Positions 10,822-52,716 of a stretch of DNA of 64,000 nucleotides are shown here, piece by piece. The notes beneath the pieces are model-generated. The model saw only the letters and a list, made by a program, of their open reading frames with translations. It had not been told where the DNA came from and made no database searches. Position 1 is the stretch's first letter. Each line of letters opens with the position of its first letter. Made by a program: the position numbers and the translations under genes. Source of the stretch: Squalus acanthias (Eukaryota); NCBI GenBank assembly GCA_030390025.1, contig CM059432.1, positions 45,572,001-45,636,000 on the forward strand, in the 5' to 3' direction.

Positions 10822-11041
10822 CATCGCAAACCAGCAAAAAATAGTGCAGCTATAAAAATAAACAGAAATATAGGAAATATGAAATAAAAACATATTTAAA
10901 AACTGCACAATAGGTTGATTAACATCTGAAATAAAGATTCACTAATGTTTCAAATCTGACTCATTATCAAAACACGGTAGCGCAGCATTCTACTCTCTTT
11001 CATTCTACAATATGAAGATACAGTCCATAAAATAACAATAT

Positions 11042-11215
11042 GGGGGTAATTTTGACCTAACCCGGCCGTTGAGAAACTGATGGGATTGGTTCCATCACTT
11101 GATTTACACCCCGCTCAATTGCACTCAATAGAAATTAAAATCAGTCAGGGTGTAAAATGGGAGATTGTTCCGTTCCTCTCAGTTACCCACCAGGCTGGTT
11201 CGGTTATAATTTCAC
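11042..11215. repeat. Old palindromic MITE-like element
   Basis: Imperfect inverted arms (GGGGGTAATTTTGACC...GGTTATAATTTC; TTTACACCC...GGGTGTAAA). Confidence 0.4.
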
Positions 11216-11376
11216 ATTTTTAGAGAACTGTATTTGTTCCATTATGCACACATCTCACTGTACTGACTACTTAAACTCCAGAAGCTGTAATATTACAATG
11301 GAAAAATCCACTGCACCAAAAATCAAAGATGGCGGATCCTCAAACATTTCCAGGGTCTCCCCTACACATCATTTTT

Positions 11377-22290: not shown

Positions 22291-22980
22291 GACCTGAAAA
22301 ATTAATAGTTATAAAAGCAGAACAGAAAACTAAGCATCCAAGCTTACATTATTAAGTCTTTAATCTATTGGAGGACTGTTCGCAACCTTGGCGTCCTATT
22401 TGACCCTAAGCTGAACTTCTGACCCCGGCACGGGCTCGACGGGCCGAATGGCCTTCTTCTGTGCTGTAACCATTCTATGATTCTGATCCTCTCCATCACA
22501 AAGACCGCCTACTTCCACCTCCTTAACATCGTCCCTCTCTGCCCCTGCCTCAGCTCATCTGCTGCAGAAACCCTCATCCATGCCTTTGTTACCATTAGAC
22601 TCGACTGTTCCAATGCACTCCTGGCTGGCCTCCCACCTTGCATCCTCCGTAAATTGAACTTATCCAAAACTGCTGCCCGTATCCTAACACGCGCCAAATC
22701 CTGTTCACCCATCACCCCTGTGCTCTCTGACCTACATTGGCTCCCGGTCTGGCAACACCTCGATTTTAAAAGTCTCATCCTTATTTTCAAATTTCTCCAT
22801 GGCCTCGCCCCTATCTCTGTAACTCTCTTCCAGCCCTACAAGCCTCCGAGATTTCTGCGCTCCTCCAATTCTGGCCTCTTGCGCATCCCTGATTTTCTTC
22901 GTTCCACCATTGGCGTCCGTGCCTTCAGCTGTCTAGGCCCTAAGCTTTGGAATTCCCTCCCTAAATCTCTCCGACTCTCT

Positions 22981-24620
22981 ATGAGGTTGATTCTGGAGAT
23001 GAAGGGTTTGTCTTATGAAGAAAGGTTGAGCAGGTTGGGCCTATACTCATCGGAGTTTAGAAGAATGAGAGGGGATCTTATTGAAACATATAAGATTCTG
23101 AAGGGGCTTGACAGGGTAGATGCAGAGAGGATGTTCCCCCTCATGGGGGAATCTAGAACTAGGGGGCATAATTTCAGAATAAGGGGGCACCCTTTTAAAT
23201 CGGAAATGAGGAGGCATTTCTTCTCTCAGAGGGTTGTGAATCTTTGGAATTCTCTTCCCCAGAGAGTGACTGCCCTTGACATCAAGGCAGGAGCCCTAGT
23301 AAAACTGAAGTCAATGGGAATCAGGGGGAAAACGCTCCACTGGCTGGAGTCATATCTAGCCCAAAGAAAGACGGTTGTGGTGGTTGAAGGTCAATCATCA
23401 CAGCCCCAGGACATCGCTGCAGGAGTTCCTCAGGGCAGTGTCCTAGGCCCAACCATCTTCAGCTGCTTCATCAATGACCTTCCCTCCAACATAAGGTCAG
23501 AAATGGGGATGTTCGCTGATGACTGCACAGTGTTCAGCGCCATTCACAACTCCTCAGGTATTGAAGCAGTCCATGCCCACATGCAACAAGACCTGGATGA
23601 CGTTCAGGCTTGGGCTGATAAGTGGCAGGTAACATTCGCACCACACAGGTGCCAGGCAATGACTATCTCTAACAAGCAAGAGTCTAACCACCTCCCCTTG
23701 ACATTCAATGGCATTACCATCACCGAATCCCCCAATATCAACATCCTGGGGTCACCATTAACCAGAAACTTAACTGGACCAGCCACATAAATACTGTGGC
23801 ATCAAGAGCAGGTCAGAGGCTAGGTATTCTGCGGCGAGTGTCTCACCTCCTGATTCCCCAAAGCCTTTCCACCATCTACAAGGCACAAGTAAGGAGTGTG
23901 ATGGAATACCCTCCACTTGCCTGGATGAGTGCAGTTCCAACAACACTCAAGAAGCTTGACACCATCCAGGACAAAGCAGCTCGCTTGATTGGCACCCCAT
24001 CCACCACCTTAAACATTCACTCCCTCCACCACCGGCGTACCATGGCTGCAGTGTGTACCATCTACAAGATGCACTGCAGCAACTCGCCAAGGCTTCTTCA
24101 GCAGCACCTCCCAAACCCGCGACCTCTTCCACCTAGAAGGACAAGGGCAGCAGGCGCATGGGAACACCACCACCTCCAAGTTCCCCTCCAAGTCACACAC
24201 CATCCTGACTTAGAAATATATCGCCGATCCTTCATCATCGCTGGGACAAAATCCTGGAACTCCCTACCTAACAGCACTGTGGGAATACCTTCACCACATG
24301 GACTGCAGCGGTTCAAGAAGGCGGCTCACCACCACCTTCTCAAGGGCAACTAGGGATGGGCAATAAATGCTGGCCTTGCCAGCGACGCCCACATCCCAGG
24401 AATGAATAAAAAAAAAGGTTGTGGAGGCTGGGTCATTGAATATATTTAAGGTGGAGATAGACAGATTTATGAACGATAAGGGAGTCAAGGGTTATGGGGA
24501 GCGGGCAGGGAAGTGGAGTTGAGGCCAAGATCAGATCAGCCATGATCTTATTGAAAAGCGGAGCAGGCTCAAGGGGCCAAATGACCTACTCCTGCTCATA
24601 CATCTTATGTTCTTATGTTC
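22981..24620 (+). mobile_element. CR1 3' fragment (22981-23267 and 24417-24620) nested in L2
   Basis: GLSYEERLSRLGLYS..RRMRGDLIETYK..FFSQRVVNLWNSLP; (TTCTTATG)n tail at ~24603-24620. Confidence 0.88.
23268..24416 (+). mobile_element. Second CR1-group LINE lineage, 3' fragment with poly(A)
   Basis: GVPQGSVLGPTIFSCFINDLP..FADDCT, YKAQVRSVMEY and WNSLPNS; 3' end GGGATGGGCAATAAATGCTGGCCTTGCCAGCGACGCCCACATCCC followed by A9. Confidence 0.85.
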
Positions 24621-25511
24621 TATCTCTCTCTCCTCCTTTAGGATGCTCCTTCAAACCTACCTCTTTGACCAAGCTTTTGGTCACCTGTACTGTCAAGTTT
24701 GGGTTGATAATCACTCCTGTGAAACGCCTTGGGAATTTTGCTATGTTAAAGGCGCTATATAAATGCAAGTTGTTTTTGTTGTTATGTGTTGCATTCTGAA
24801 CTTTGAGCTACGGTGACCTCCAACTTGCGTCAATTTAGCCATCATCTTTCTGCACCGCTACCGACTCTCATTCCTACGCAACAACCTCCATCCTTGAACT
24901 TTCTACCCTTCAAATAGCTTCTGGACTTCACTCACCTGCTTTGGACAGCGGTTCGTCGATGCTCCGTACCGGCCCATCATGCTTATGTCGATTTTGTCCT
25001 TCCATAGGGCCTCTGACTTTGACCCTGGTCTCCCTACTATTGTCTCCAACCTATTCCCTGCTACCAGGATATATGTATTCCATTAATTATTACATTTAAA
25101 CAGGCCTCTGTAACCTGAGCTTTTCCTGTGCCCATTCGTGTGCACACTTTGGCTGTTGCTCCGGACCCGAGCCATTCAATACTTTTCCAGTTTTTCCCCA
25201 TCTTTTCCTTTCTCTCTATCCCTCCCTGACCGCTCTCCCCTGTCGTCATGCCTCCTTTCATCTCTCCTCTCTCGGATACTCTGCCCTCCCAAATCCCTAC
25301 CCCAACCCTTCATTACTCATCGACTGTCTTACTTTCCTGCCAACGTCCCAGGCTTGACTCCCCCTTAGATAAGCCTACAGCTTCCCTCTGTGCCTCTCTT
25401 AGCATCCTATGAAGGGCCCATCGAGGCACTCGTTGCTACCGCCTTATGAGCAGCAACCCCAACTGTCCCATCTTACTCTCTCGATGATCTTCCCGCCCAG
25501 CGCGCCCACTG

Positions 25512-27603
25512 GTGTCAAATCTTGCCAATGTCCTCCCGGTCCAACTCACCCCTCCCAGCGCTGACCCTGTGGACACTGGCAATGGGGCAGCCATCACCGA
25601 CCCTCCCCGCGTCTCCCTCCAGAATGTCCGTTCACTTGCGAACAAGGTCCTTGCCATCCATGAGCTTATCGTGGATGATTGCATCGAAATGGCCCTGACG
25701 GAAACTTGGTTGAGGGGTGATGACATCTTACCCTTAAATGAAGCCTCCCCGCCTGGCTATACTTTCCACCACTTGCCCTGTTCAGACCGCCGTGGTGGCG
25801 GTGTGGCTCTCATCACCAAATCACACCTTGGTCCGGCCCCCTACTCCTCTGGCACTTTCTCCTCCTTTGAGCATCTCCTCTTATTCCACCCCTCTCACCT
25901 CTCATTTAAAATTCTCGTTCTCTACTGCCCACCCAAGTACCATAAAATGTTTATTACCGAGATATCTTCACTATTCTCCTCCCTCAGCCTCTACACCGAA
26001 CGACTTCTCATCCTCGGTGATTTCAACCTCCATCTCAATTCATCATGCTCTCTCCTCTGAGTTCACTAGCCTCCTATCCTCCCTTAATCTCTCCCTCCAT
26101 GTAAACTCCCCAACCCATATTCACGGCCACCCCCTCGACCTTGCCATCTCTCGTGGCCGCGCTACTCCCATCTTGTCAATCGCAGATAAGGCCATTTCTG
26201 ACCACTTCCTCGTATCGCTCTCCACCCACATCCCTCTTCCACCACCCCCCTCCCCCAAACTCTACTTCCTTCTGTGTCCGCCCCTGGAGAAAAACTTTCT
26301 CCCAACTCTCTTACAACTGCACTTATGAAATCCCAACTGTCTAGCCTTTGGCCCTCCATTCACCATGACATTTCTGCAGCTACTGATCTGCTCAACCACA
26401 CCTTCACCACCACCTTTGATGCACTAGTCCCTATTAAAAGAATTATTATCTCTCACACTGGCCACTCCCCCTGGTACATCCCTCATCTCCACTTGCTTAA
26501 GTCCAAGGGACACAGACTTGAACGGATATGGCGGACAACTGGTTTAGCCATTCACCGCCAGATCTGGCTGGACCACATAAAGCATTATCGGGTCCTGCTC
26601 TCGTCTGCCAAAATTGCTCACTATTCCAGAATCATTCTGGAATGCAAAGATAAACCCCAGCTCCTATTCTCTACTGCTAACTGTCTTCTTAAACCCCTCT
26701 CCCCGTCTCCTCCACTCTCACCTCTGACAACAAGTGTGAGGAGCTCATGGACTTCTTTGTCTCTAAGATTGAGACCATCCGTTCCGCTGCCTCTGCCACT
26801 TCCCTTCCTTTTCCTAGCCCACCGGGTGAAACTTCCTCTAAGATTTCCCCCTGTCCTAGCCCTGAACTCATATCTTTCTCCAGTTTCTCTCCGATCTCCC
26901 CTCATGACCTCTCTGCGCTCATCTTGTCCATGAGATCCATTTCCTGTTCTCTCGACCCTATTCCCACCAAACTGCTGACCACCCAACTTCCTTTTCTGGC
27001 TCCCATGTTAGCTGACATTGTTAACGGTTCTCTCTCTTCAGGTACTGTCCCCGTCCTTCAAATCTGTCATCATCACCCCTCTCCTCAAAAAACCAACCCT
27101 TGACCTCTCTGTCCTTGCAAACAACCGCCCCATCTCCAACCTCCCTTTCCTCTCCAAAGTCCTTGAATGTGTTGTCACCTCCCAAATCCGTGCCCATCTT
27201 TCCCGCAATTCCACGTTTGAATCCTCCAATCAAGTTCCCGCCCTTGCCACAGTACCAAAACAGCTCTCATCAAAGTCACAAATGACATTCTTTGTGACTG
27301 TGACAAAGGTAAACTATCCCTCCTCGTCCTTCTTGACTTGTCTGCAGCCTTTGACATGGTTGACCACTCCAACCTTCTCCAATGCCTCTTCCCTGTCATC
27401 CAGCTGGGTGGGACTGCACTTGCCTGGTTCCATTCTTATCAATTTAATCATAGCCAGAGAATCACCTGCAATGGCTTCTCTTCCCGCTCCCGCATCATTA
27501 CCTCTGGTGTCCCCCAAGGATCTATCCTTGGCCCCCTCCTATTTCTCATCTACATGTTGCCTCTTGGCGACATCATCCAAAAACACAGCATCAGTTTCCA
27601 CAT
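25512..27603 (+). mobile_element. L2 LINE ORF2 5' part (APE endonuclease and RT up to FH|MYADD), frameshifted; 5' region probably extends to ~24800
   Basis: LQNVRSLANK, LTETWL, ILGDFNLH, LDLAISRG, ISDHF, RPISNLPFLSKVLE, LDLSAAFDMVDH, GVPQGSILGPLLFLIYMLPLG. Confidence 0.93.
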
Positions 27604-29612
27604 TGTAAAGTTTCTCAATTATCGCGATTCAAAATAACAAGATAGAAACAGATTCGTTTGATCAGTTTATTTAAACGAAATGCTGTCATGATTAAAAAGG
27701 ACACAGAAGCCTGTAAAATGGCCACCGCGCATCATGGCAGAAGCTTCCAGAATTACAGTGGGCAGACAAGATGGCGTTCGAATAAACATTTCAATATAAG
27801 ACGGGATCATACTCGATAAGCACTGATAAAGACAGGATGCAACCTGTTTGCATTTGTGACAATAGCAAAAGATATGAGTGCTGGAATCGTTTTCCATGCA
27901 CAAGTAAGGACCATTGTACTGGGCAATCGAAGGCCCATCCAGACACATCAATACACAAATACCCCCACGGCTCTACAATGAGAGAGCCATTCTCGGGTGA
28001 TTAAACAAGTATTCGGGGGCCCCCGAAACCATCAGGGAGACGATTCATACTATCCTGGCTGGGTCAACAATGGGGAAAACATTAACGGGTAGTTGGCCAG
28101 TTTCAGGTGCTACCGAAACCCGTTAAAGACAAGAATCGCCCCATGCTGGGAGTTTTGTGTGCCAATATTTCACAAAGGACAAACATTAAGATTTGGGCGG
28201 GAGATAAGGGAACACAGCACTATAACTATAGTGAACAAATGTCCATCGGTCTCTTATTCGCTCGAATCGTCTCCTATTCTCTTAGCTTGCTGCTGACTGC
28301 TGAAGCTCTTCTCTAGGGCTGGACTCTGTTGACTCTGGACTTTTAGCCGCACTGGACGGTTATTCGAATGTTGGGTGGAGCTCAATCGGAACGAGCCGCC
28401 TCGACAAAGGCAAGTGACCGGGTGCACCATCCCGAGAGTCGGTAAGAACATAAGAACATAAGAACATAAGAAATAGGAGCAGGAATAGGCCAATCGGCCC
28501 CTCGAGCTTTGCTCCGCCATTCAATAAGATCATGGCTGATCTGATCCTAACCGCCAATCTACTATCTACTATCACAGAACCATCTCCTGCATCTAACAGA
28601 ATTGCACACACGAAATAGGAGCAGAATCAGCCTACACGGTCCCTGGGCCCACTCCACTACCCACACGGCCATGACCGATCCGAACCTAGACTCATGTCCA
28701 AATTCCTGCCCGCTCCCCGTAACCCTTAATGCCCTTTACTTCTAGGAAACTGTCTATTTCTGTTTTAAATTTATTTAATGATGTAAACGGTGTCTGGACC
28801 CGAAGGCTCAACAAGACAAGACGAAATGACAAGAAAAGAAGAAGAATCCATGTGCCGCCGTGGTCAGTAAACCCCGACCGCGCCCGAAAATATAAGACCC
28901 ACTTCTTGAACTCTACAGGTTATTGCACTAACTCTTTGAATTCTACCGACAACTGGTGTCGGTACAGGAAGACTTTTCTTTGAGTTCTACAGCCGGGCCC
29001 GAGTTCTGTCGAGTTCTTCATGACAACGGGGAGCCCGGCCTGCTTGCCGCAGCAGCGAAGATAAACAAGTGGGGTACAGAGACCCATCCAAACACGTGAC
29101 AGTCAGGCGCTGCAGCGAAACGAGCCGAGTGCCTCACTTTAAAATTCTCCGAAGTATCACGAGTGGTGAGCATGTTCCCCGATCCTACAAATCTAGATGT
29201 AGTGTAGGTATTGATAGGGGAGGGTGGTTTTATTAAGGATAAAGTATAATGTGTTCCCCTTTTTACGATGTGCCGTGCGTTCTTCATTACCATAGACCAA
29301 GCTTTATGAATGTATGTATACTTGTACTCTCGTTAATTTGCACCTATGACATGTACTTCATGATTTTGGATGCTATGCAATAAAGATTTCCATTTCGTAC
29401 TATTCAACCGGGTCTATCTGAGTTTTCTCTGCATTACTGCTCTCGCACCTAAGTCCAGTGTTAGAACCGTAAGGGCGAGTGGGTCGAACCACTCACAGGT
29501 GCTTATTGCAACAAGGCTGGCCGGAGACCAGAGCAAGCAATAGTATTAGGCAACGAAGGCCTAACCTCGCACCAGCACCGTCTGCGATACAAGCACGCCG
29601 AAACCCCTTACA
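27604..29612 (+). repeat. 5' LTR (with a 341-bp CR1 tail insertion)
   Basis: TGTAAAG...CCCCTTACA; AATAAA at 29379-29384; direct repeat of 40349-42031. Confidence 0.97.
28446..28786 (-). mobile_element. CR1 3' UTR/tail fragment inserted in the 5' LTR
   Basis: (AAGAACAT)n tail; absent from the 3' LTR; GTAA duplicated at the junctions. Confidence 0.9.
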
Positions 29613-29616
29613 GAAA

Positions 29617-31441
29617 ATGGCGACCGCGGCAGGACACTGGCAGCGAGAGAGTAATGTTTTAGACCCTGGTGTGAATAGGCGAAATGTGATGGATGAGAGG
29701 GTAGCCGACTATGTGTTTGGGAAGGTTAACTTAACCAAAAGGTGGATAAGTGACCTACTGATGGATAAGCGTCCGCTAGACGCAGCCATCAAATGGACAG
29801 GCAGTAAAGAGCATAAGAAGTCGGTGGAGAAAGCGGTCTGGCTGATGTGCTACAAGAAGCAAGTCCAACTTTCGGACCAGGTCATTGTAGCACAGGCAGC
29901 TCAGATCAGGGATTTGGAAGTTGAGATGGAGGAAAAGATCACGGGAGGACAGAAACTCATTGCATCCTTGAATGCGTTACATCAGGAACGCCAGATAGTA
30001 GCCAACCACCATGAGGCTAAAATTGATTACCTAGAGTGTCAGGTCACGGAAGCGAAATTAAACGAGGGTAGGATTAGGGAACGGTGTGCCCGCCTAGCTA
30101 ACCAGATAAAAGCCCAGGAAGAAAGCTTGAAGGGAGTTAGGGCGGCATATAAGATGGCCCTCGAGGATAGGCATGAGGGAGCCGACCACAGTGTTTGCCA
30201 GAAGGAGATAGGGAACCTAAGAGAGGCCCTGAATAAGGCAAACGGCTTGCTGTTCCTCATCAGCCCGTCAGAAAACCAGCCACAGGTGGGTAGGGAATTC
30301 CCAAAATCCCTACCAGACAAAGCAGAGGAGGTATTTGCCACTGTGCCCTCCGCGCCACCCAGCTATTCGGCAACCTGGGTAAGGGAGGAAGTGGTGGAAA
30401 TAGAAAAGGAGGTTCCCGAGGTAGGACAATCCCCAGAGGTAGAGTCGAAACCGGGACCGATGTGTCCGCTCCGAGGTCACAAGAGAGGCCCGAATGCAGC
30501 CAATGGGGATGACGGGGATGTCCTGAACCAGCTTATATTGCCTCACAGCTCACACCAGCTGAGAGCAATGATTAGCCATGTACGGAAGCTGTCCGAGTCA
30601 GACGACCCTTCCGTACACTTTAGGGAGGTAGAACAGACCGCAGCAATTAATGGCTGCGACGATGTGGAAAAGACCAAAATGTTGCTGTTCTCGTTAGATA
30701 GCTCGATCCTTCAGTGTCTCTCAGACGAGAGCAAGAAGGGAAATAAAACCTATGAGGAGTTACGGGACGAGGTCCTAGAAGTGTTAGGGGCGGATGACGA
30801 AGGTCCGTTCGTCAGATTGAGTCAAATCATACAGATGGAGGGAGAACTCCCGAAGGTTTTCGCCGACAGGCTGTGGCCAGTATACCAGCGTAGCTGCCCA
30901 GGTGCGCCAGCGTGCACCTATCTGAACGGTGCCAGGTTTAACTCATTGGCTCAGGTGTTCAGTAGCCAACAGTTTGCCAGCCGTCAGGGAGCAGGCCAAA
31001 GCGTGGTTTGATCCCACTAACCCCGCCACAACAGAGGAGTCTGTCCTAAATCGACTCACCATAGGGTATCGTAACACTAGGAGCACGGGAGCGCGTCCCC
31101 TTAAGGGAAAGGTGCATGAGGCACGGCCCGCAGCCCCGGCTCAAAAGGAGTGGCATCAGGAGGGAAACCGCGCCCCACAAGCCAGTGGTGCTTGTTACGG
31201 GTGCGGGAAGACAGGTCACTGGCGTAAGAACTGTAGGAACCCCTGGAAGGACCCCAGGGATAAAAATCCCGCAGCCCGAACCCAAGCGCCTGTCTCTGAG
31301 AGAGGAGCTGGTGTGCCTATCCATCCCGATGCGATAGAATCAATGTTGGGAGCTATGCGGTCCCTTATGATTTCGCAAGGAAGGGTGGCAGTCGCTACCG
31401 GCCTCACAGATGCCACAAAATCGTCCACCAGTACCCAATGA
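29617..31441 (+). pseudogene. gag: Gag: N-terminal coiled coil, PSAPPSY late domain, capsid-like region, CCHC knuckle; one frameshift at ~30928
   Basis: ORFs 29479-31011 and 30929-31441; CYGCGKTGHWRKNC; candidate starts at ATG 29617 or 29689. Confidence 0.9.
29618..29635 (+). promoter_or_regulatory. Primer binding site, tRNA-Arg(UCG)
   Basis: TGGCGACCGCGGCAGGAC is complementary to the vertebrate tRNA-Arg(UCG) 3' end ...GTCCTGCCGCGGTCG-CCA (tRNA sequence recalled from memory). Confidence 0.85.
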
Positions 31442-34400
31442 CTAGAGCCCGCGTAGCCCGTTTACCTGTGTCCGCTCAGCTATGATGCGTGGAAAAGACC
31501 CCTGGTTGAGATGGAGGTAGAGAAGCAGAAGGGTAGTTATTTGTTGGACACGGGAGCTTCATGCACCGTGATTCATACGGATAGCCCCTTTGACTCACTG
31601 CTGTCTACCAAGGTCCCATACACATTAGCGGGGTTCACGGGAAAAGAGCAGGCTGGCGCGTTCTCCATTCCGCTCTCCATTCATTTAGGAGCACTCCACA
31701 CCACATGGAAGTGCATACTGATGAAATGGCAAGAGTGGGGTGGCAGAGGTATCCTCGGATCGGATCTCCTATCGGAACACGTGATCCTCGTGGACCTTAG
31801 GAATCACTGTCTCTGGGGAGCCAAGGGTGGGAAAGGCAAGGTAGTTGTAATCCCAGGGAAGGAAGGTAAAGGGGCCCTGTGTACCATGAAGCCATCCGGA
31901 GGTTACGACCTCGGGCTTATGGTCGCGGATGTCCCAACGGACATGCAAGCGTACGTGTCAGATAATATGCACGCGTTTGCAACCCACAAGCACGATTGTG
32001 GGAGGGTTACCGGGTTTGAGGTCAGCATAGACGGGGACCCCATGACCCGGCCCCAAAAGCAGTATAACTTCCCCAAAGAAGCAGAACCCGACATGGAGAC
32101 AGCAATGTCCTCATTGGTGCAGCAGGGCGTGTTGAGGCCGATAGCCACACACGTGAACTCCCCATTATGGCCGGTGAGGAAGCCGGATAATTCGTGGAGG
32201 GCCACGGTGGACTACAGAGTCCTTAACAGTAACATCCCCGCCTGCGCGCCCACAGTAGCAGCAGTTGCTGACCAATAGGGAGTATCCCAGCGTCCGCGAC
32301 CACGTTCACGGTGCTGGATATCTCGAACGGTTTTTGGTCCATCCCGCTGCGGCGAGAGGACCAGTACAAGTTTGCCTTTACTTTTAAAGGACAACAGTAC
32401 ACATGGAACTGTTTGCCACAGGGTTTCCACAACAGCCCCAGTATTTTCCATCAGTGTATGGCAGGAAGTTTAAAGGAGTTTAGTCAGCCCAATCAGATAG
32501 TGCAATACGTGGATGATTTGCTCCTGTTCACGGACTCAAGGGAAGAGCATGGACCACTGCTAGCCGAGTTATTGGAGCTGCTAGCGAGAAAGGGTTTTAA
32601 AGTGAACCCTAAGAAAGCACGTATCGGTCAGCAGGAAGTAAAATTCCTGGGTCTGACCATTCGCGCTGGGGAAAGAGCCATAGATAAGGCTAGGAGGGAG
32701 TCGGTGCAGGAGTTACCGATTCCCAACACCATAACGGGTGTGAGGTCCTTTCTGGGACTGACCGGTTACTGTAGAGACTTCATCGAGGACTATGCGGCCA
32801 CAGCAGCTCCGCTGCTCCGACTCCTCCATAAGGGAGTGGAGTGGTCTTGGGACGAGGGTTGCCAGGCAGCATTCGAGAAGTTAAAAAGGGATTTGCAGAC
32901 CGCGCCAGCTTTAGGGGCCATAGATGGGGGGAAGGAGTTTTTCCTGGAGGTAGCTGCCAGCGGAGACAGCTTGAGCGCCGTGCTGCTCCAAGAGCGTCAC
33001 GGCAAGCTGAGGCCGGTTGTCTATTCGACCAGGGTGTTAACGGATGTGGAGAGGAGTTTTTCCAACTGCGAAAGGCATCTTTTAGCCACGCATTGGGCTG
33101 TGAAAAGATCAGCGATCTTCACAGGGCTCTCTCCCATCACTCTCCTCACCCATCACACACCAACTAAGATGCTTCTAGATGGGAGGATTAAGGATGGGAC
33201 CGTAAGCAGCGCTCTCATTGCGCGCTGGACCCTTCTCCTTTCCCAGATGGATCTTAGAGTTAAAGGTCTTTGCGAGCCCAGGCTTGCGGCCAACTTGGTA
33301 TACCCCGGAACAGCCCACCGGTGTTCGGTAGAAGGGGTGTGGGAGGTCAACATAGGTTTGCGGGCCGGGATACATCCCACAGGTCGCGAGATTTATGTTG
33401 ATGGTTCCAGCACAGTGTCCGCTGGCGAACGACTCACAGGGTGTGGAGTTTATGACCCTGCGGCAAACCTTGCCCTGGCGATTAAACTCCCCAGCACCAT
33501 GAGCGCGCAGCAGGCTGAGCTGTCTGCGGTGGTGTACGTAGTGACCCACCCAGAGATCTTCCCAACCACATACACGATTTGTTCGGACAGTATGTTTACG
33601 TGCAATTCGTGTACGGAATACCTGGCCATTTGGTCCCGCCGTGGATACACCTCCGCGGACGGGCGACCTTTAACGGTGAAGCCCTTGCTGGAAAAGATCC
33701 TAGCAGCAGTAGGGGAGGAAGGGGAGATTTTCATCCATAAGGTGAAAGCTCCCTCCTCCACAGAGCCCCGCGGGGAGGGCAACCAGCAGGCGGATGCGCT
33801 AGCCAGGGAGGGTGCCCGTAACGGCATTTTCTGGGACCCCTATGGACCCGGACCCGTGGCAGCAATCCAAGGCAGGGAAGGGAATCCCGGGAACACCAGG
33901 GTAGCACTGCCCCTAGACCTTAAGGCCGTCCAGAACCAGGATCCCGCGCTAAAAGCAGTTCTCAGAACGATTACTGAGGGCAAGCAGGTAGAGGGCCTGT
34001 ACAGTACGGCAACCCTCTCCGTTAAAGAAGGCATGCTGTTCCGCGAGGAACAGTGGGTTGTGCCGCAGCAGCACAGGAGGGAATTCCTACAGTTGGCTCA
34101 TGAGGGGCCGGGGGCAGGACACCCCGGGCCGGAGGTTACCTGGCAACGGGTAGAGCAGGCGGGATGGTGGCCGGGACTCAGGGAGCAGGTCCGCGAGTTC
34201 TGTGCAAACTGTCTCGTGTGCGCTGCAAACAACCCAGACCCCCAGAAAAGGAAAGTGCACATGGGGCACATCAGGAGGGTGGAGGGACCGTGGCAGTCGA
34301 TACAGATCGATTACATAGGGCCCCTGCCCACCACCCAGGGAGGCTACAAATACTGCCTCGTCTTGGTGGATGTGTTTTCCAAATGTGTAGAAGCCTTCCC

Positions 34401-34621
34401 CTGTAGAACAGCTACGGCGCTGGGTACTGCTAAGATCTTGGTCCAGGAAGTGTTCTCGCGGTGGGGACTCCCCCGTTTCGTGGAGTCAGACCAAGGGAGT
34501 CATTTCACCGGCCAGGTGATGCAGAACACCCTCATGCTTTTGGGCATTGAAGGGAAGTGGCACGTAGCGCACAATCCCCAGTCATCCAGGATTGTTGAAC
34601 GCATGAACCGGACCCTCAAGC
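31442..34621 (+). pseudogene. pol: Pol: protease, RT, degenerate RNase H (tether), RNase H, integrase core; stop at 31454, frameshift at ~32272
   Basis: LLDTGAS; PQKQY, LDISNGFWS, LPQGFHNSP, YVDD; YVDGSS/AQQAEL/CSDS/GNQQAD; H..H..CANCLVC, IQIDYIGP, ESDQGSHF, VERMNRTLK. Confidence 0.96.
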
Positions 34622-36265
34622 TGTAAGGGATTCTGACCCTGCGTGTCTCGCAGCCTGTGAGATTCACGCGGCTCTGTGCAGCCTGTATGTCAGTGCGGGT
34701 TTAAGCCTTGTTGCCTGTTCTGGTCTCCAGCCAGTCTGGGAGCACTAGACACACCTGTGAGTGGTTCGAATCACTCGCCCTTACGGTTCTAGACACTGGA
34801 CTTAGATGCGAGAGCAGTAATGGAGATGAAACTCATGTAGACTCGGTTGAATGGTACGAAATGGAAAATCTTTATTGCATGATATTTAAGATTATGAAAT
34901 ACATGTCATAAGCACAGATTAATGACAGTACAATCTTACAAGCAGTTATATAGCTGATCCTAGGGAAACGAGGAACGAACGACACACCGTAAATAGGGGC
35001 ACACATTACAAGTATCCTTAATACTTAAACCCTCCCCTATCAATATCTGTCCTAACTAGATTCGTAGGATTTCGAGACTCATGCTCACCACTCGTGATAA
35101 CTCGGAGAAATTCCAAATAGCTGATCGGATGTTTTTCACCGCAGCACCCACGTGTCGGTCAGGAGATCTCCTGGTCCCACTTGTTTACTTGCTTCTGCTC
35201 CGGCTAGCAGGCTGGACCGTCTGCTGTGATGAAGATCTGTGTTGGTTGGTTTAACAGGTACTTTTCCGAGCAGGTTTCACAGCTCAGTCAATATCATCGA
35301 TGATGAACCGTTCTTGCAAGTTCAAAGAAGTCTTCCTGGCAAGGAAAACTTGGCTATTCGACCTACAGGCGCGGTCGGGATTTACTGACCGTGGCGATGA
35401 GTATGGTCTTCCTCTCTTCTCATCTCATCTCATCTCATCTCATCTCGGGCCTTTGGTTCCGCTGCCAGTTACCAACATAGGTCTTCGTTACGCGACACGA
35501 GGTAGATCCGAACGGATCAGAAAGTTCAACAGTCTTTTTCAAAAAGGCACCAGGAAAACAGGAACCAGACTACGAGTCAAAACGCAGGAGCAGCCATGAG
35601 GTTACGAGTCGATCGGATAAGAGAAATAAGAGAGAGATGGACGGTTGGAGCTTGTAATTATAGTACAAAATCTTCCGTTTCCCGCCCAACCTTAATGTCC
35701 TTTCTTTTGTTTGGGTCTGGCGCTCAAATGTCTTGTATGGGTGATCTCCGTTCTTAATGGGTTTCGGGGCTACTCGTAAATGTCTGAGTACCTGTTAATA
35801 TTTCTCCCATTGTTAAATCGGTCGGTGTTCTCCCTGGAGGGGTTTTGGGGCTTCCAAGTGTTTTGTATAACTACCTGCTAATGGCTCTCTCATCGTAGAG
35901 TCGTTGGGATTTTACATATTAATGTCTTTTGGATGGGCCCCTGATTACTCGGTACAATAGCTTTCATTCGTACCTGGGAGACCGATTTCAGTATTTATGT
36001 GTATACTGTAAACCCATAATGTCTCGTGTATTATCTTCACTGTGCTGAATCTTAATCGATCTTGCACAAATGTTTATTGGAACGCCATCTTGTCTGCCTG
36101 TCGAAAAGTCTGGAATGTTCTGTCACGAGGTGCGGCGGCCATTTTACAGGCTGCTTGTGTCTACTTTGAGAAACCTGGCAGCATTCTGCTGAAATAAAAG
36201 CTGTTTGAACGAAACTCTGTGTTTTCTCCTTATTAATAAAATCGCGATATATTGCGAATTCTACA
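34622..36265 (-). mobile_element. Solo LTR (1644 bp, antisense) inserted in the integrase; 1450-3098-type subfamily
   Basis: Reverse complement reads TGTAGAATTCGC...CCCTTACA; AAGC/AAGG 4-bp flanks; removing it restores RTLK-EKLRKE. Confidence 0.95.
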
Positions 36266-36670
36266 AAGGAGAAGCTGAGGAAAGAGACTATGAACTCGCC
36301 CCAAAAATGGGCGGAGGTTCTGCCTCTAGTCCTCATGGGAATCCGGGCCAGCCAGTCGAAGAGTACGGGGTATTCCCCGTACGAGGTGATGACTGGGAGG
36401 ATCATGCGAACCCCCACCCATGTACTAGCCCCGGTGCTCACTGAGGATCAGCTCCAAGAGGTGAAACGGGACAAGTTTGTCCAGACCCTCTTGGAGCGCC
36501 TGAAGCAGGTTTACGAGCAGGCGGCTGGGAACATGGGAAGACAGCATCAGGGCAATCGCCTGTTGCTGGAACCCTGTAAGAAGCAGGAGTGGGAAGTCGG
36601 AGATCAGGTCATGGTTAGGAACTATGCCAGAGTAGGGAGTTTGGAACCACTGTATATGGGACCCTACAGT
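36266..36670 (+). pseudogene. pol: Integrase C-terminal part up to the GPY motif
   Basis: KWAEVLPLVLMGIRAS..STGYSPYEVMTGR..WEVGDQVMVR..LEPLYMGPYS. Confidence 0.9.
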
Positions 36671-37338
36671 CAGATGAGGAAGAGCTCGAGGAGCTCGACC
36701 AAGGTAGTGACCCGATCGGAGAGGTGCTGGGGTCAGAGGACGAAAGTTTCGTCCTCGACTCAAGCTCAGGGGAGATAGGGGCTGCGAGTGGAGATCCACA
36801 CAGGGTGGAATCGGAAACTGCAGATCCCGAGCCCAGGGGGGCGGAGCTAGGGGAGACGGAGCCAGTGGCTGTGGTAGGACCATAGGCCGTGACGGTGGAA
36901 GTCTCGGTACCCGGTCCGTCGGCCCTGGAAGTCTTGCCCTTGGGGGAGGTAGGGATTGCGAGTGGAGGACCACATACTGGGCCAAGTAGGGTGGAGCCAG
37001 AAACTGCAAATCCCGAGTTCAGGGGGGCGGAGCCAGGGGAGACGGAGCCAGCGGCTGTGGTAGGACCACAGGCCGTGACGGTGGAAGTCTTGGTTCCTGG
37101 TCCGTCGGCCCTGGAAATCTTGCCCAAAGTAGCCCTCCGTAGGTCAAGTCGGACACCCCAGCCCAGGAAGTCGTGGTCAAGTCCCCCGTACACCCCAAGG
37201 CGTAAGTTCAAGGTCAAGGCAGCCAGGGAGATCCCAGTCCCAGCGCAGCGGCGACAGGCTGCGGCAGATCAAAGGAAGGGGTCAGTGCCCTCCCACCACT
37301 GGGAAAAGCTCGTGGCAGCCTTCGCAGAATTTAAGTAG
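36670..37338 (+). pseudogene. Acidic/Pro-rich reading frame with an internal ~60-aa duplication and a basic tail (integrase extension or accessory ORF)
   Basis: SDEEELEELDQG...; repeat units 36769-36942 and 36943-37128; LRRSSRTPQPRK; one internal TAG; ends EFK*. Confidence 0.6.
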
Positions 37339-37599
37339 GCTGCCCTGGGAATGGGCAGCGCTGTACAGATAAGTTTATAAGTTTAAGTTTAAGTTTTGTA
37401 AGTTTGGTAAGTTTGCAGTTTAATTTTAACAGAAAATGGTAAAATGATGGGAGTTAGTGATAGGAATAGTTAAAGTCTATCCAGCATACATGTCGTTATA
37501 CGTGAGACGAGGTCAAGGGACCCGCTCACCCTTCACAAAAGCCAGAGACTCTTGGGAGGCTGGCTACACCATTTTATCTGATCACAGGAACCAGGAAAG

Positions 37600-39950
37600 A
37601 TGGAAAGGATTCTGATAGTGCTCGCAACGATCGGATATGGATTGGCCTATCGGGGCCTCACCAAGGATGTCGTTGTGTTTGGCTGCTCCGGGGACACGGG
37701 CCCCATCGCGACGGATGGGACCGGGGAGCGAAAGGCTGAGGAGACCGCCACTTATTTCCACAAGGGAAGGTGGCCGGGATGGCTGGGAACGAATTCAACG
37801 GAATACTCAAGCGCATCCGGATTTGCCTACAAAGAGACTTCTTTACTGTGCCCCAGAGTGAGGATCATTGCACCCAGAATCAGCGTCACCGTCGGCAAAA
37901 GGATTTGTTTGACATGCAATGGGAAGGTCCCATTGAGCCGATGGTGGTGGTTACGGAAATTAAGCAAGACTATGAGAAATTCCTCGGTTGAGTGGGAGCG
38001 ATTGGGTAACAACACCCATCGGACAATTACGGGGACTAACGGACAATTGAAAGTCTGTTGGGACAAATGGTGGGAACCGGATGAGGGAATATATGTTTGT
38101 ATGTGGGGATCGAAGTACGTTTGCCCCAAGGGTATATCCATATTTTTCGTACACCAGTGGCAGGATAGCGGAAAAGGGATGAGGTGGGATGTCAGCACCA
38201 AGGGGTGCGGAGCTGCATTCTCCCCGATCCCGGTAAACGCCACTGAACTCATCACGCGCCCACGCAAGGCTCTGCCCACGATTCCGGTGGTTTTGGCTCA
38301 GAAGGAAGGGTGCCCTAAAACCACTAAGGGGCCCGGGAATGGTTTGGTACTGGTCCCAACAGACCAGATACTATTTCAAGGGGTACATTACGCGGTGGCT
38401 TCGGTGATTCTAAATCTCACCGAGGTGCGTTTACCAGAGTGGTGCCCCAAAGAGACGGAACAATTGTACCAGGTCCTGTTGACAAACATGTTCAGACAAT
38501 TCTACGAGTTTGATTTTGCGGAGATTGACAAAACAAGCTTGTACACCACACCACACGAAGTTTTGGGTCAGGTGGGGAGACAAAGAAGGGGTATTGTGAA
38601 CGATATGTTCACTGCCTTTAATACAGGAACATCTGTGGTCAACGCTCTAGACAACGTGGAGCTGCAGACCCAGATCAATGGTTTAAAAACACAATTAAAA
38701 AGCATCCTCACAAGCGAAAACAAGGTAGTAGGGTCTGAGTTACATGAGGACCAGGCCATGACACTACACTTAAAGGAGATTATAGCAGAGCTGGAGAAGC
38801 ATGCGAGAACGGTAAATGCCCTGATCAGGGAAGATCGGAATGCATCCGATCAAGCTGCGCAGAACGAGGTGTGCGTACTATACGGGGCGTGGTTACTGGG
38901 CGAGGGCTGCAGTAATTTGGAGGATTTAAAATAAGGTTTGGTCCCGTCCTGGATAAGTAACAAACACCTGCAGGCGCTCCACCCTTTTCAGAACGCATTA
39001 AGCCCGTGCCAGCTCAGGCTAGCCTCAGAGGCATACCCAGTCCCCGTGGACTGTGGACGGTCAAATCATACCATCATGGGTATAGTACTACGTATGCCGG
39101 TGTTGGGCGACACGGCAAAGCCCACCCCGGTGTACCGGGTGGAGAACATTGGTGTCATTCAGGGGGAGCCCACATTCGCTACGCAGCAGTCCCACCTTAC
39201 GTCATCCGCTGGGAGCAAACGATGACAGGTACCGACCTATCGGGTTGTCGTGGCCGGGGAGCACACATCATACTGTGTCCCCAGCACTTGAATGCCTTTT
39301 TACCACCACAATGCGGGTTCAGAACGGCTGGCGCCAAGGGAATGAATTGCACCATGGAAGCAATGACACAAGATCATGTGCCTCCGCAGGTGGCATACAT
39401 AGGGGGTGGAACATATTGCGTTACCACTGCAGCGCAACACTACCAGCATGGAAACCACAGCCGGTGTCCGGTGAGTGACAGCAGTTTCTGTTTTAAACCC
39501 AGAGTTGAAGTTCAAGTGGCACAACAGCGAATTGTCCCGATCCCTGAACCATCCACTGTTCACCTTACAGTAAAAGAGAATTTCACCGACTTGCAGCGAT
39601 TCGTCGCGCATTTTGGATACATCATTCCCCCTCTCCCTGAACACCTCACCAAGCTTTTGAAAGCCGTCGCGGTGTCACAGAAACATTTTTACACCCTGGA
39701 ACAAAAGACTGTCGAGATAGGGACAGAAATTTTGGACATAGTAATCCCACCGTGGTGGGATCTGTTCACTAATATTGAAGTTCCTTCATGGATCAGGATA
39801 GCCTCCCACATTTTGGTAGTGTGCCAAGTTATAATTGTAGTGTACCTATTGGTCGTGCACTGCAGAAGAGGCAAACGCCTCACAAAGCAGGAGAACACAG
39901 GGGAGTGGAGAGAACGTTACGTGCGCGTGAATGAAGAAAGTGCCGCATAA
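37600..39950 (+). pseudogene. env: Envelope glycoprotein (~780 aa): signal peptide, Ig-like domain, F-like class I fusogen, TM and tail; stop at 38932, frameshift at ~39165
   Basis: MERILIVLATIGYGLA signal; RQRR|GIVND cleavage; heptad region; Cys-rich region; ILVVCQVIIVVYLLVV TM; acceptor-like TTTTATCTGATCACAG ending at 37587. Confidence 0.9.
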
Positions 39951-40336
39951 ACGGCCAGGATGACGCCGCTCCATTTTTACCATGTGTGTTTTCGTAATTG
40001 ATTGTTAGTAATGAATATGTGTAACTAAGTTTGGAACTTTGTATTTTTAAAATGGTTGTTTGATTATTTTTCTCTTGTATAATAAAAACATGCATATACA
40101 GGTGGTGCGAGAGGCATCGGCCTGTTGCACCTGGAAGGCGTATACGCGATGTAAGTTTAAAGGCAATACTGCCTACAATTTGTCCAAGTTTAAACAATGT
40201 AATTTTCCCTGGGAAATGAGGACGGCATGGAGGCCATAGATAGTTCAAGTTAAGGGAGTGTTTGGATGTGGAGAATCGGGATAATTTTTGCTCACCACCA
40301 TTTTTAATTGATACGATAAGCGGAGTTATTCGCATC

Positions 40337-40348
40337 AACAGGAGGGAC
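40337..40348 (+). promoter_or_regulatory. Short purine tract (PPT) before the 3' LTR
   Basis: AACAGGAGGGAC immediately precedes TGTAAAG. Confidence 0.7.
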
Positions 40349-42031
40349 TGTAAAGTTTCGCAATTATCGCGATTCAAAATAACAAGATAGAAACAGATTC
40401 GTTTGATCAGTTTATTTAAACAAAATGCTGTCATGATTAAAAAGGACACAGAAGCCTGTAAAATGGCCACCGCGCATCGTGGCAGAAGCTTCCAGAATTA
40501 CAGTGGGCAGACAAGATGGCGTTCGAATAAACATTTCAATATAAGACGGGATCATACTCGATAAGCACTGATAAAGACAGGATGCAACCTGTTTGCATTT
40601 GTGACAATAGCAAAAGATATGAGTGCTGGAATCGTTTTCCATGCACAAGTAAGGTCCATTGTACTGGGCAATCGAAGGCCCATCCAGACACATCAATACA
40701 CAAATACCCCCACGGCTCTACAATGAGAGAGACATCGACGGGTGATTAAACAAGTATTCGGGGGCCCCCAAAACCAGTCAGGGAGATGATTCATACAATC
40801 CTGGCTGGGTCAGCAATGGGGAAAACATTAACGGGTAGTTGGCCAGTTTCAGGTGCTACCGAAACCCGTTAAAGACAAGAATCGCCCCATGCTGGGAGTT
40901 TTGAGCGCCAATATTTCACAAAGGACAAACATTAAGATTTAGGCGGGAGATAAGGGAACACAGCACTATAACTATAGTGAACAAATGTCCATCGGTCTCT
41001 TATTCGCTCGAATCGTCTCCTATTCTCTTAGCTTGCTGCTGACTGCTGAAGCTCTTCTCTAGGGCTGGACTCTGTTGACTCTGGACTTTTAGCCGCACTG
41101 GATGGTTATTCGAATGTTGGGTGGAGCTCAATCGGAACGAGCCGCCTCGACAAAGGCAAGTGACCGGGTGCACCATCCCGAGAGTCGGTAAACGGTGTCT
41201 GGACCCGAAGGCCCAACAAGACAAGACGAAATGACAAGAAAAGAAGAAGAATCCATGTGCCGCCGCGGTCAGTAAACCCCGACCGCGCCCGAAAATATAA
41301 GACCCACTTCTTGAACTCTACAGGTTATTGCACGAACCGGTCAAAGACTCTTCTTTGAATTCTACCGACAACTGGTGTCGGTACAGGAAGACTTTTCTTT
41401 GAGTTCTACAGCCGGGCCCGAGTTCTGTCGAGTTCTTCATGACAACGGGGAGCCCAGCCTGCTTGCCGCAGCAGCGAAGATAAACAAGTGGGGTACAGAG
41501 ACCCCTCCAAACACGTGACAGTCAGGCGCTGCAGCGAAACGAGCCGAGTGCCTCACTTTAAAATTCTCCGAAGTATCACGAGTGGTGAGCATGTTCCCCG
41601 ATCCTACAAATGTAGATGTAGTGTAGGTATTGATAGGGGAGGGTGGTTTTATTAAGGATAAAGTATAATGTGTTCCCGTTTTTACGATGTGCCGTGCGTT
41701 CTTCATTACCATAGACCAAGCTTTATGAATGTATGTATACTTGTACTCTCGTTAATTTGCGCCTATGACATGTACTTCATGATTTTGGACGCTATGCAAT
41801 AAAGATTTCCATTTCGTACTATTCAACCGGGTCTATCTGAGTTTTCTCTGCATTACTGCTCTCGCACCTAAGTCCAGTGTTAGAACCGTAAGGGCGAGTG
41901 GGTCGAACCACTCACAGGTGCTTATTGCAACAAGGCTGGCCGGAGACCAGAGCAAGCAATAGTATTAGGCAACGAAGGCCTAACCTCGCACCAACACCGT
42001 CTGCGATACAAGCACACCGAAACCCCTTACA
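40349..42031 (+). repeat. 3' LTR (1683 bp)
   Basis: TG...CA ends; AATAAA at 41798-41803; TATA-like AATATAA at ~41293. Confidence 0.97.
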
Positions 42032-43012
42032 ACATGTACGCTGACGACACCCAGCTCTACCTGACTACCACTTCTCTCGACCCCTCCACGGTGTCTAAAT
42101 TGTCTGACTGCTTGTCCGACATCCAGTTCTGGATGAGCAGAAATTTTCTCCAATTAAATATTGGGAAGACGGAAGCCATTGTTTTCGGTCCCCGCCACAA
42201 ACTCCGTTCCCTAGCCACTGACTCCATCCCTCTCCCTAACATCTGTCTGAGGCTGAACCACACTGTTTGCAACCTTGGTTTCATATTTGACCCTGAAATG
42301 AGCTTCTTCTGACCACTTATCCGCAGCATAACTAAAAATGCCTATTTCCACCTCCGTAACATCACCCGTCTCCGTCCTTGCCTCAGCTCATCCGTTGCTG
42401 AAACCCTTATCCATGCCTTTGTTACCTCTAGACTTGACTATTCCAACGCACTTCTGGCTGGCCTCCCACATTCTACCCTACGTAAACTTGAGGTGATCCA
42501 AAACTCGGCTGCCCGTGTCCTAACTCGCCCCAAGTCCCGTTTACCCATCACCCCTGTGCTCGCTGACCTACATTGGCTGCCATTTAAGTAACGCCTCGAT
42601 TTCAAAATTCTCATCCTTGTTTTCAAATCCCTCCATGGCCTCACCCCTCCCTATCTCTGTAATCTCCTTCAGCCCTACAACCCCCCGAGATATCTGCGCT
42701 CCTCTAATTCTGCCCTATTGAGCATCCCTGATTATAATCGCTCAACCATTGGTGGCCGTGCCTTCTGTTGCCTAGGCCCCAAGCTCTGGAATTCCCTGCC
42801 TAAACCTCTCTGCCTCTCTACCTCTCTTTCCTCCTTTAAGATGCTCCTGAAAATCTACCTCTTTGACCAAGCTTTTGGTCACCTGCCCTAATTTCTCCTT
42901 ATGTGGCTCGGTGTCAAATTTTTTGTCTTATAATACTCCTGTGAAGTGCCTTGGGGCGTTTTACTATGTTAAAGGCGCTATATAAATACAAGTTGTTGTT
43001 GTTGTTGTTGTT
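42032..43012 (+). mobile_element. L2 LINE 3' part (continuation of 25512-27603)
   Basis: MYADDTQLY..WMSRNFLQLNIGKTE..LIHAFVTSRLDYSN; tail GGCGCTATATAAATACAA(GTT)n. Confidence 0.95.
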
Positions 43013-48389: not shown

Positions 48390-49506
48390 TCACAGCCACA
48401 TGGCTAATTGTGCTTGTAGTTCACCAACCTTATTCACCACACTTCGTGCATTTACATACATGCATTCAAAACCCATTTTTGAATTTTTTGTAGTCTTTCT
48501 TAGTCTGCTCCTATATAATATGGTACTTCTACCTCCTCTAGTACTATCATCTCTAGTACTATCCAACACAATCACTCTTTTATGCACCTTATTCCTCTTT
48601 TCTACTCCTATATGCTGGTGCCCATCCCCCTGCCAAGCTAGTTTAAATCCTCCCCAACAGCACTAACAAACCTCCCTGTGAGAATATTGGTCCCGGCTCT
48701 GTTGAGGTGTAACCCGTCCAGCTTGTACAGGTCCCACCTTCCCCAGAAACGGTCCCAATGCCTCAGGAATCTAAAGCCCTCCCCCCTGCACCATCTCTCC
48801 AGCCACGCATTCATCTGTTCTATCCTCCTATTCCTGTACTCACTAGCACGTGGCAACGGTAGTAATCCGGAGATTACTACCTTTGAGGTCCTGCTTTTTA
48901 ATCTCTTTCCTAGCTCCCTAAACTCTGCCTGCAGGACCTCATCCCTCTTTCTGCCTATGTCATTGGTACCGTTATGGACAATGACCTCTGGCTGTTCACC
49001 CTCCACCCTCAGAGTGTCCTGCAGCTGCTCAGTGACATCCCTGACCCTGGCACCAGGGAGGCAACATACCATCCTGGAGTCACGTCTACGGCCGCAGAAA
49101 CGCCTGTTTGCTCCTCTAACTATTGAATCCCCTACCACTATTGCTCTTCCACTCTTTTTCCTCCCCCCCTGTGCAGCTGAGCCACCCGTGGTGCTGTGGA
49201 CTTGACTTTGGCTGCTCTCCCCAGAGGAACCATTGCCCTCACCAGTACACAGAACAGAATACTGGTTGGAGAGCACAATGTACTCCGGGGACTCCTGCAC
49301 ACCTGCCTGGTCCTCCTCTTCTGTCTGGCGGTTGCCCATTCTCTCTCTGCCTGCACACTCTTAAGCTGCGGGGTGACCACATCCTGAAATGTGCTATCCA
49401 CGTAACGCTCAGCCTTGCGGATGCACCGCAGTGAGTCCAGCCACCACTCAAGCTCCGAAACCCGGAGCTCGAGTTGCTGTAGCTGGCGACACTTCCTGCA
49501 CATGTA
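48390..49506 (-). mobile_element. CR1 5' part: ORF1 (half Zn finger, leucine zipper, SGNH esterase; frameshift at ~49320) and start of ORF2 APE
   Basis: CRKCRQLQQLELRVSELE; VVGDSIVRG, CLPGARV, HNGTNDIG, DGLHLN; ECMYVNARSVVNKVGEL. Confidence 0.92.
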
Positions 49507-52500: not shown

Positions 52501-52716
52501 TTTATACGGCTCCTCCCACTCTCGGCGCTCTTTATACCGCTCCTCCCACTCTCGGCGCTCTTTATACGGCTCCTCCCGCTCTCGGCGCTCTTTGTGCCGC
52601 TGCTCCCGCTCTCGGCGCTCTTTATACCGTTCCACCCGATCTCAGCGCTCTTTGGGCCGCTGTTCCTGCTCTCGGCGCTCTTTGTGCTGCTGCTCCCGAT
52701 CTCGGCGCTCTTTATT
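49501..52716. repeat. 30-bp tandem array, ~107 units, consensus TTTATACCGCTCCTCCC(A/G)CTCTCGGC(G/A)CTC
   Basis: Units stay in exact 30-bp register throughout; the most degenerate units are at the 52.6-52.7 kb end. Confidence 0.99.

Follow-up and report, generated by a model that had tools for sequence, protein, structure and literature searches.

A 64,000-nucleotide stretch of Squalus acanthias contig CM059432.1 (GenBank assembly GCA_030390025.1, positions 45,572,001–45,636,000; hereafter the window, meaning the whole stretch analysed) carries an endogenous retrovirus (ERV) at window positions 27604–42031. We consider this element, with a probability of roughly 0.8, to be a defective germ-line provirus of a likely shark or ray host, representing a deep-branching retrovirus lineage outside the lokiretroviruses (Loki), with snakehead retrovirus (SnRV) as its nearest named virus and an envelope protein (Env) predicted to be of the paramyxovirus/pneumovirus fusion-protein (F) type. 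An earlier note, made from the sequence alone, had read the element as a member or relative of Loki that might extend the host range of that group to elasmobranchs. A Loki screen of three chondrichthyan genomes found none in any of the three (PMC7947760), which made the claim worth testing and agrees with the first reported Loki hosts as given in the same note (lampreys, bony fish, amphibians and reptiles).

Phylogenetic position

The window enters the reverse transcriptase (RT) trees as the unbroken C-piece of its RT together with the tether, a tether-type RNase H, and is accompanied by its unbroken relative P0040. A careful tree was built from 38 of 63 rows, 25 near-duplicate or long-branch rows having been dropped; further rows were omitted from the full-length integrase tree and from the trees with foamy rows. 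The SnRV Pol and genome as well as foamy and class II genomes were included in the comparisons. Loki is represented by 14 proteins, selected from 223 by the motifs of the rows in PMC7947760, and not by the sequences of that paper. In the careful tree of RT plus tether, the Loki rows come out as a single clade (support 100/99) and the retrovirus side takes in the window (100/98). The same split recurs in three further RT trees and in a careful tree of the full-length integrase (99/96). Forcing the window into Loki costs 34–40 log-likelihood units, with p = 0.0024 in the approximately unbiased (AU) test and p = 0.0099 when foamy and class II rows are present. The RT motifs listed in the earlier note (PQKQY, LDISNGFWS, LPQGFHNSP and YVDD) were all located and are of the SnRV type: the provirus has PQGF where the Loki rows have PFGY or PFGL, and DISNGFWS occurs in the Loki supplement, counted over pages up to 300 of 318, in SnRV rows only (two of two places). 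The RT trees, the AU tests and these motifs speak against membership of Loki and, as the RT trees exclude the window from that group, the proposed extension of its host range falls as well. The RT, RNase H and integrase phylogenies suggested as a check were run for RT plus tether and for integrase; the careful trees of both keep the window apart from Loki, with which Odin is reported to cluster (PMC12440569). The view that the RT falls outside Ty3/Gypsy and the epsilonretroviruses was upheld, since the RT lies outside Gypsy (outgroup split 100/100), Pol has two RNase H domains rather than one, the RT is not inside class I, and Env does not have the CX6CC/ISD make-up of the gamma type.

Among the compared sequences, P0118 and L001 are SnRV: the RT agrees with the SnRV row in the supplement of PMC7947760, and L001 has the 10,688 nt of the SnRV genome (PMC12193657). 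Identity over the RT C-piece is 52–58% to frog and coelacanth ERVs, 45% to SnRV, 35–42% to the seven Loki-motif rows listed and 33–38% to 15 foamy loci. In the trees the provirus joins the ERVs of frogs and coelacanth at the base of the retrovirus side, with turtle ERVs close by. These frog, coelacanth and turtle Pols, annotated as 'NYNRIN-like' or 'Gypsy integrase-like' (P0001, P0042–P0047, P0116), are its nearest relatives outside the elasmobranchs and share its group or grade in all trees, but bear no virus name. With SnRV the provirus shares the RT motifs, the highest RT identity found to a named virus, a single CCHC zinc knuckle in Gag, a pol that follows immediately on an in-frame gag stop, a primer site resembling that of SnRV (identical at 13 of 18 positions to the TGG 18-mer at SnRV position 85) and a homologous Env. 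The SnRV clade is loosely defined (PMC12193657, PMC4977317), and in this loose published sense the provirus belongs to the SnRV-like group. An SnRV-related ERV lineage has already been reported in the elephant shark (Han 2015, PMC4422223); this CmiERV lineage I likewise has a cartilaginous-fish host and is complete with long terminal repeats (LTRs), but, as far as a comparison by description goes, differs in its holocephalan host, its length of 9.6 kb and its LTR divergence of 3.3%.

Envelope protein

The env features are as follows.

37600..39950, + strand: env, about 780 codons, with a stop at 38932–38934 and a frameshift at about 39162–39165
about 37828–38160, + strand: possible immunoglobulin (Ig)-like arm of Env, from a weak sequence pattern
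38578–38589, + strand: RQRR cleavage site, a motif ahead of a long heptad region
about 39798–39860, + strand: transmembrane segment, followed by a short tail of about 30 residues

Env has a hydrophobic N-terminus, long heptad helices and a Cys-rich region. A model of its core, built with X at the internal stop (pLDDT 63.7), gave four Foldseek matches at E ≤ 0.001, every one of them the F protein of human parainfluenza virus 3 (hPIV3) or respiratory syncytial virus (RSV), and in VIA the seven top-ranked rows all belong to F proteins or foamy Env (Z 7.0–8.0, about 160 residues, rmsd 4.4–5.5). The model of an unbroken bamboo-shark relative, P0110 (pLDDT 47.7), matched the F proteins of RSV, hPIV3, Newcastle disease virus and human metapneumovirus and again foamy Env. 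The window Env is thus predicted to be a fusogen of the paramyxovirus/pneumovirus F type, so that the note's description of it as not of retrovirus type holds for a non-gamma Env that is F-like by predicted fold. Foamy virus Env has an F core and is placed with paramyxovirus/pneumovirus F among the 'class Ib' fusogens (PMC11468914). The predicted likeness to both lies in the core sheet and helical bundle, whereas identity is only about 10–16% and the extra region of the provirus Env is N-terminal and possibly Ig-like. No statement that an SnRV-type Env is F-like was found in the open-access literature, and the ESM Atlas returned nothing usable for the window Env, linking P0110 to one chordate cluster at 0.82.

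A profile of the Env family (16 rows) aligned with SnRV Env at an hhalign probability of 89% (E = 2.3e-6) over 288 colinear columns, scoring 9.4 bits where the best of 300 shuffles reached 2.8; this match, weak but colinear, marks the two Envs as homologous. The arm at 37828–38160 carries a C...W...DxGxYxC pattern, similar to one in SnRV Env, and its best Protein Data Bank (PDB) sequence matches are almost all Ig V domains, none of them significant (best E = 0.07); its similarity to the SnRV arm is at shuffle level.

In a BFVD search with the P0110 model, two further proteins ranked among the F-type matches: a filovirus-like glycoprotein from fish (E = 4.4e-7) and the Env of walleye dermal sarcoma virus (E = 1.1e-5). 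The latter match, obtained with a low-confidence model, raises the thought that epsilonretrovirus Env may also be F-type.

Evaluation of alternative placements

Several results weigh against the placement preferred here. The Loki, Gypsy, gamma, epsilon, foamy and class II labels were assigned from motifs and names, and a first AU test on the quick tree of all 63 rows did not reject window plus Loki (p = 0.058). A quick integrase tree nested five Loki rows in the group of the window at 92, and identity to Loki-motif rows (tether 32–40%, integrase 39–42%) exceeds that to SnRV (26% and 36%). On a place in the Loki/CGIN1 group the quick and the careful integrase trees, neither with a CGIN1 row, point different ways. 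The window and SnRV are not united in any free tree; of the constrained clades of the two, the broad one with turtle rows was rejected (p = 0.014) and the narrow one was not (p = 0.17). Gag resembles SnRV Gag no better than shuffles do, the LTR of the provirus measures 1.68 kb, and neither the 3′ORF of SnRV nor its 136-residue Env tail (about 30 residues here) has a counterpart, the longest ATG frame after env having 55 codons. The Env sequence matched nothing significantly in Pfam, PF00523 included, or in the PDB. The fold matches are middling, with TM-scores of 0.2–0.3 and unrelated helical proteins reaching Z 7.0; the TM-scores being low, the evidence for the fold lies in the consistency among matches.

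These identities, the quick integrase tree and the first AU test would suit a lokiretrovirus, the first in a cartilaginous fish, as would gag, pol and env between LTRs, a tether plus a second RNase H, and an F-like Env (here a predicted fold) with a basic cleavage site, all described for Loki (PMC7947760). We consider this reading extremely improbable. Every RT tree recovers Loki as a single clade that excludes the window, two AU tests reject the grouping, the careful integrase tree returns Loki to the position of sister, and the RT motif of Loki is PFGY-type. The dual RNase H is common to all retroviruses (PMC7947760) and, as an F-like Env is predicted here and known in foamy viruses, such an Env is no diagnostic mark of Loki. 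Loki Envs are also shorter, starting at the F core and lacking a long N-terminal arm (4 of 23 rows examined), and the Loki Gag excerpts examined contain no CCHC. The closeness of tether and integrase to Loki we read as that of a slow-evolving lineage which has probably retained old states. The idea, drawn from the quick tree, that Loki acquired its integrase from the shark lineage was abandoned because the careful full-length tree disagrees.

The deep-branching lineage proposed here also has to be set against an early foamy-virus relative that kept the zinc knuckle and gag–pol readthrough, and against a mosaic in which a retroviral pol was combined with an env acquired from Loki or a mononegavirus. 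The trees with foamy rows are quick trees that hold no FLERV rows. In them a window-plus-foamy clade is not rejected (p = 0.61) and gains 3.4 log-likelihood units over the quick free tree; foamy Env ties as the best VIA match and the LTRs are long, all in keeping with a foamy relative. Such an origin is nevertheless quite improbable, since no free RT tree joins the two, RT identity to foamy viruses is below that to SnRV, and no accessory frame follows env. Spumaretrovirinae have a Gag without CCHC and accessory genes past env, and foamy pol is expressed apart from gag, which counts against this reading. The CCHC found here is absent from class III/ERV3 (table in PMC4299795). A mosaic would draw on the frequent incongruence of Env and Pol in anamniote ERVs (10.1101/2021.11.23.469661) and on the predicted F-like fold of Env. 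We hold it very unlikely, because the Env is homologous over 288 columns to that of SnRV, whose RT is the closest among named viruses, a finding that fits joint descent, and because a Loki donor would have had an Env of the shorter form noted above.

Structure of the provirus

The remaining features of the provirus and its insertion site are listed below.

25488..27599, + strand: left half of the target long interspersed nuclear element (LINE), with endonuclease and RT fragments (domain search)
27600..27603, no strand: left target-site duplication ACAT (flank sequence)
27604..29612, + strand: 5′ LTR, 2009 bp including a later insertion (LTR–LTR alignment)
28443..28783, no strand: 341-bp dispersed-repeat insertion in the 5′ LTR that the 3′ LTR lacks, with parts at six other places in the window
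29618..29635, + strand: primer-binding-site-like 18-mer starting with TGG, 5 nt past the LTR
29616..31441, + strand: gag in two frames (frameshift near 30926–31011), with a helical N-terminal part and one CCHC knuckle at about 31190–31237
31442..37338, + strand: pol, behind the stop and in frame with the end of gag
about 31490–31777, + strand: protease, a pol domain
within pol, + strand: RT, with a frameshift near 32272–32278
about 32848–33246, + strand: tether (tether-type RNase H), a pol domain
about 33388–33816, + strand: second RNase H, a pol domain
34060–34621 and 36266 to about 36690, + strand: integrase, split by an antisense solo LTR
34622..36265, − strand: solo LTR of a related family within integrase, antisense, 1644 bp, flanks AAGC/AAGG
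36769–37125, + strand: proline-rich Pol tail with a 180-bp duplication
40337..40348, + strand: short purine-rich tract ahead of the 3′ LTR
40349..42031, + strand: 3′ LTR, 1683 bp (LTR–LTR alignment)
42032..42035, no strand: right target-site duplication ACAT (flank sequence)
42036..42312, + strand: right half of the target LINE RT (domain search)

The provirus begins with TGTA and finishes with TACA, and ACAT on either flank forms a 4-bp target duplication. The left flank matches positions 41–146 of the Pfam RVT_1 profile and the right flank positions 144–193, so that one LINE RT is split between the two flanks; this makes the insertion real and a chance pairing or misassembly unlikely. LTR ends, duplications and domains thereby bear out the LTR-gag-pol-env-LTR layout given in the earlier note, whose tally of stops, frameshifts, one insertion and one deletion also agrees with the mapped breaks. 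'Nearly intact' overstates the case, as all of gag, pol and env carry breaks. The reported CCHC knuckle was found, with E = 6e-4 and 20.2 bits, slightly below the cut-off of 20.8, and the capsid region of Gag had no match in the PDB. Two in-frame stops mark the gag–pol junction, at 31439–31441 and 31454–31456, and similarity of Pol to its relatives is lost just past the integrase GPY motif. The Pol terminus at 36769–37338 consists of the duplicated proline/glutamate-rich stretch and then a basic SP-rich tail; the SnRV Pol tail is also basic.

In the parent virus, reverse transcription would have been primed at the site observed beside the 5′ LTR, presumably by tRNA-Arg. Gag carried the one zinc knuckle seen here, and Pol would have arisen through readthrough past the in-frame stop that ends gag, as the matching layout of SnRV and a leaky-type context of the stop suggest. 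Pol, with its two RNase H domains, supplied the integrase that leaves 4-bp duplications. At the cleavage motif Env would have been cut by furin, its predicted F-type core then driving fusion, and the N-terminal arm, for which the best Ig match has E = 0.07, may perhaps have bound a receptor. The present copy entered a LINE, decayed and took two later insertions, the nested solo LTR and the 341-bp repeat, and is probably inert, giving rise to no virus.

Elsewhere in the window, decayed LINE endonuclease and RT fragments occur at 8145–12683, 22423–23790 and 59922–61097. A minisatellite with 107 copies of a 30-bp unit, several of its reading frames being open, occupies 49505–52715 and is adjoined by a GDSL-esterase fragment (E = 2e-15) at 48638–49360 on the minus strand; esterases are known from LINE ORF1. 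No host gene was recognized among 13 long window frames scanned, and Rfam gave no match across the 64 kb.

Age and related insertions

The LTR pair differs by 27 substitutions over 1668 aligned sites (1.6%; Kimura two-parameter distance 0.0164), within the 25–30 estimated by eye in the earlier note; transitions make up 16 of these, including 12 at CpG. Its 'few indels' correspond to three, with lengths of 1, 14 and 341 bp, although the note had overlooked that the largest is an insertion of repeat DNA. Dating from this alignment gives an insertion age of 3.7 million years at a mammalian rate of 2.2e-9 per site per year and about 40 million years at 2e-10; Han 2015 took 2.2e-10 as the chimaera rate (PMC4422223). 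As the rate assumed for cartilaginous fish is ten times slower than the mammalian one and the age shifts with it, 'young' is not established.

The nested solo LTR shares 74% identity with the LTR of the provirus itself and 85% with a solo LTR at 1450. That one (1450–3098) and another at 15093–16730 belong to related families, with exact 4-bp duplications (GCAC and ATTT) and 78% and 91% of aligned columns, respectively, identical to the 3′ LTR. The duplications of the related solo LTRs in the window are hence exact at two sites and near-exact at one. The presence of four related insertions within 64 kb suggests that this group of families is abundant.

Relatives and host range

The closest Pol relatives are a Logan protein (87% identity) and, as the best named match, a Heptranchias perlo protein that is 84% identical where it covers 48% of the query, followed by the frog and coelacanth ERVs at 38–43% over Pol. 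Of 26 Env relatives, 17 were looked up: 15 come from sharks or skates, with identities up to 77%, and one from an eel. These counts and the H. perlo match, which concern viral relatives and not host genes, make the elasmobranch setting assumed in the earlier note likely. Env proteins of the skate Rhinoraja longicauda (P0087, P0088) are 75–77% identical to the window Env; this value, like the 84% for the sevengill-shark Pol, is high for the shark–skate split and points to slow evolution or transfer between elasmobranchs. Parts of gag–pol are present in 20 sequencing runs from eight studies and six organism codes; none of the 20 is listed as RNA, though run X10 may be. In all four of these runs examined (organisms A, B and C) contigs fill all 30 bins and bridge the nested-LTR site, and the family is accordingly multi-copy, with other copies free of the nested LTR.

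In Pristiophorus japonicus (P0089, P0090) Env pieces are fused into 'Niban 1-like' and 'ZFP2-like' gene models, an annotation artefact or an exonization. The eel Anguilla anguilla (P0112, P0113) holds a distant Env relative (E = 7e-4), the sole named non-elasmobranch among the 17. P0113 was considered as a Loki Env and set aside, two of its short motifs having no occurrence in the part of the Loki supplement examined. A viral-contig scan with the window RT–RNase H confirmed none of three candidate stretches. No paper naming the shark provirus family was found in the open-access literature; supplements or subscription papers may hold one.

Implications for retroviral envelope evolution

Four scenarios for the origin of Env were left open in the Loki paper (PMC7947760). 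An Env that is predicted to be F-type and homologous to that of SnRV, on a third deep branch and beside the solved foamy Env, would favour the two in which Env was present in the common ancestor, and hints that an F-like Env is the ancestral type in retroviruses. In four RT trees the window falls outside the node that unites SnRV with the rest (96/91 in the careful tree, 98–99 with foamy rows). On a broader reading, which is tentative and in our view rather unlikely, the shark family and the frog, coelacanth and turtle ERVs mislabelled 'NYNRIN-like' would make up a slow-evolving, still unnamed lineage whose divergence predates that of SnRV, foamy viruses and all other named retroviruses; with the Envs of Loki, foamy viruses and SnRV all F-type, the first retroviral Env would have been a fusogen like paramyxovirus F and the gamma and beta Envs a later replacement or reduction. 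A foamy-first topology, which is not rejected (p = 0.65) and scores 4.8 units above the quick free tree, tells against so early a branching, and the statement that the lineage had been shown to branch below foamy viruses was dropped as unsupported by the AU tests (p = 0.65 and 0.61). If the broader reading were true, the lineage would retain an ancestral kit: a tether and an integrase of the Loki kind, a single zinc knuckle, a pol expressed by readthrough and an F-type Env.

The locus removes a false lead, in that it gives no Loki in sharks. It also reveals a family with both pol and env across sharks and skates, with close copies in several related genomes, which can serve both dating and the building of an Env tree based on structure.

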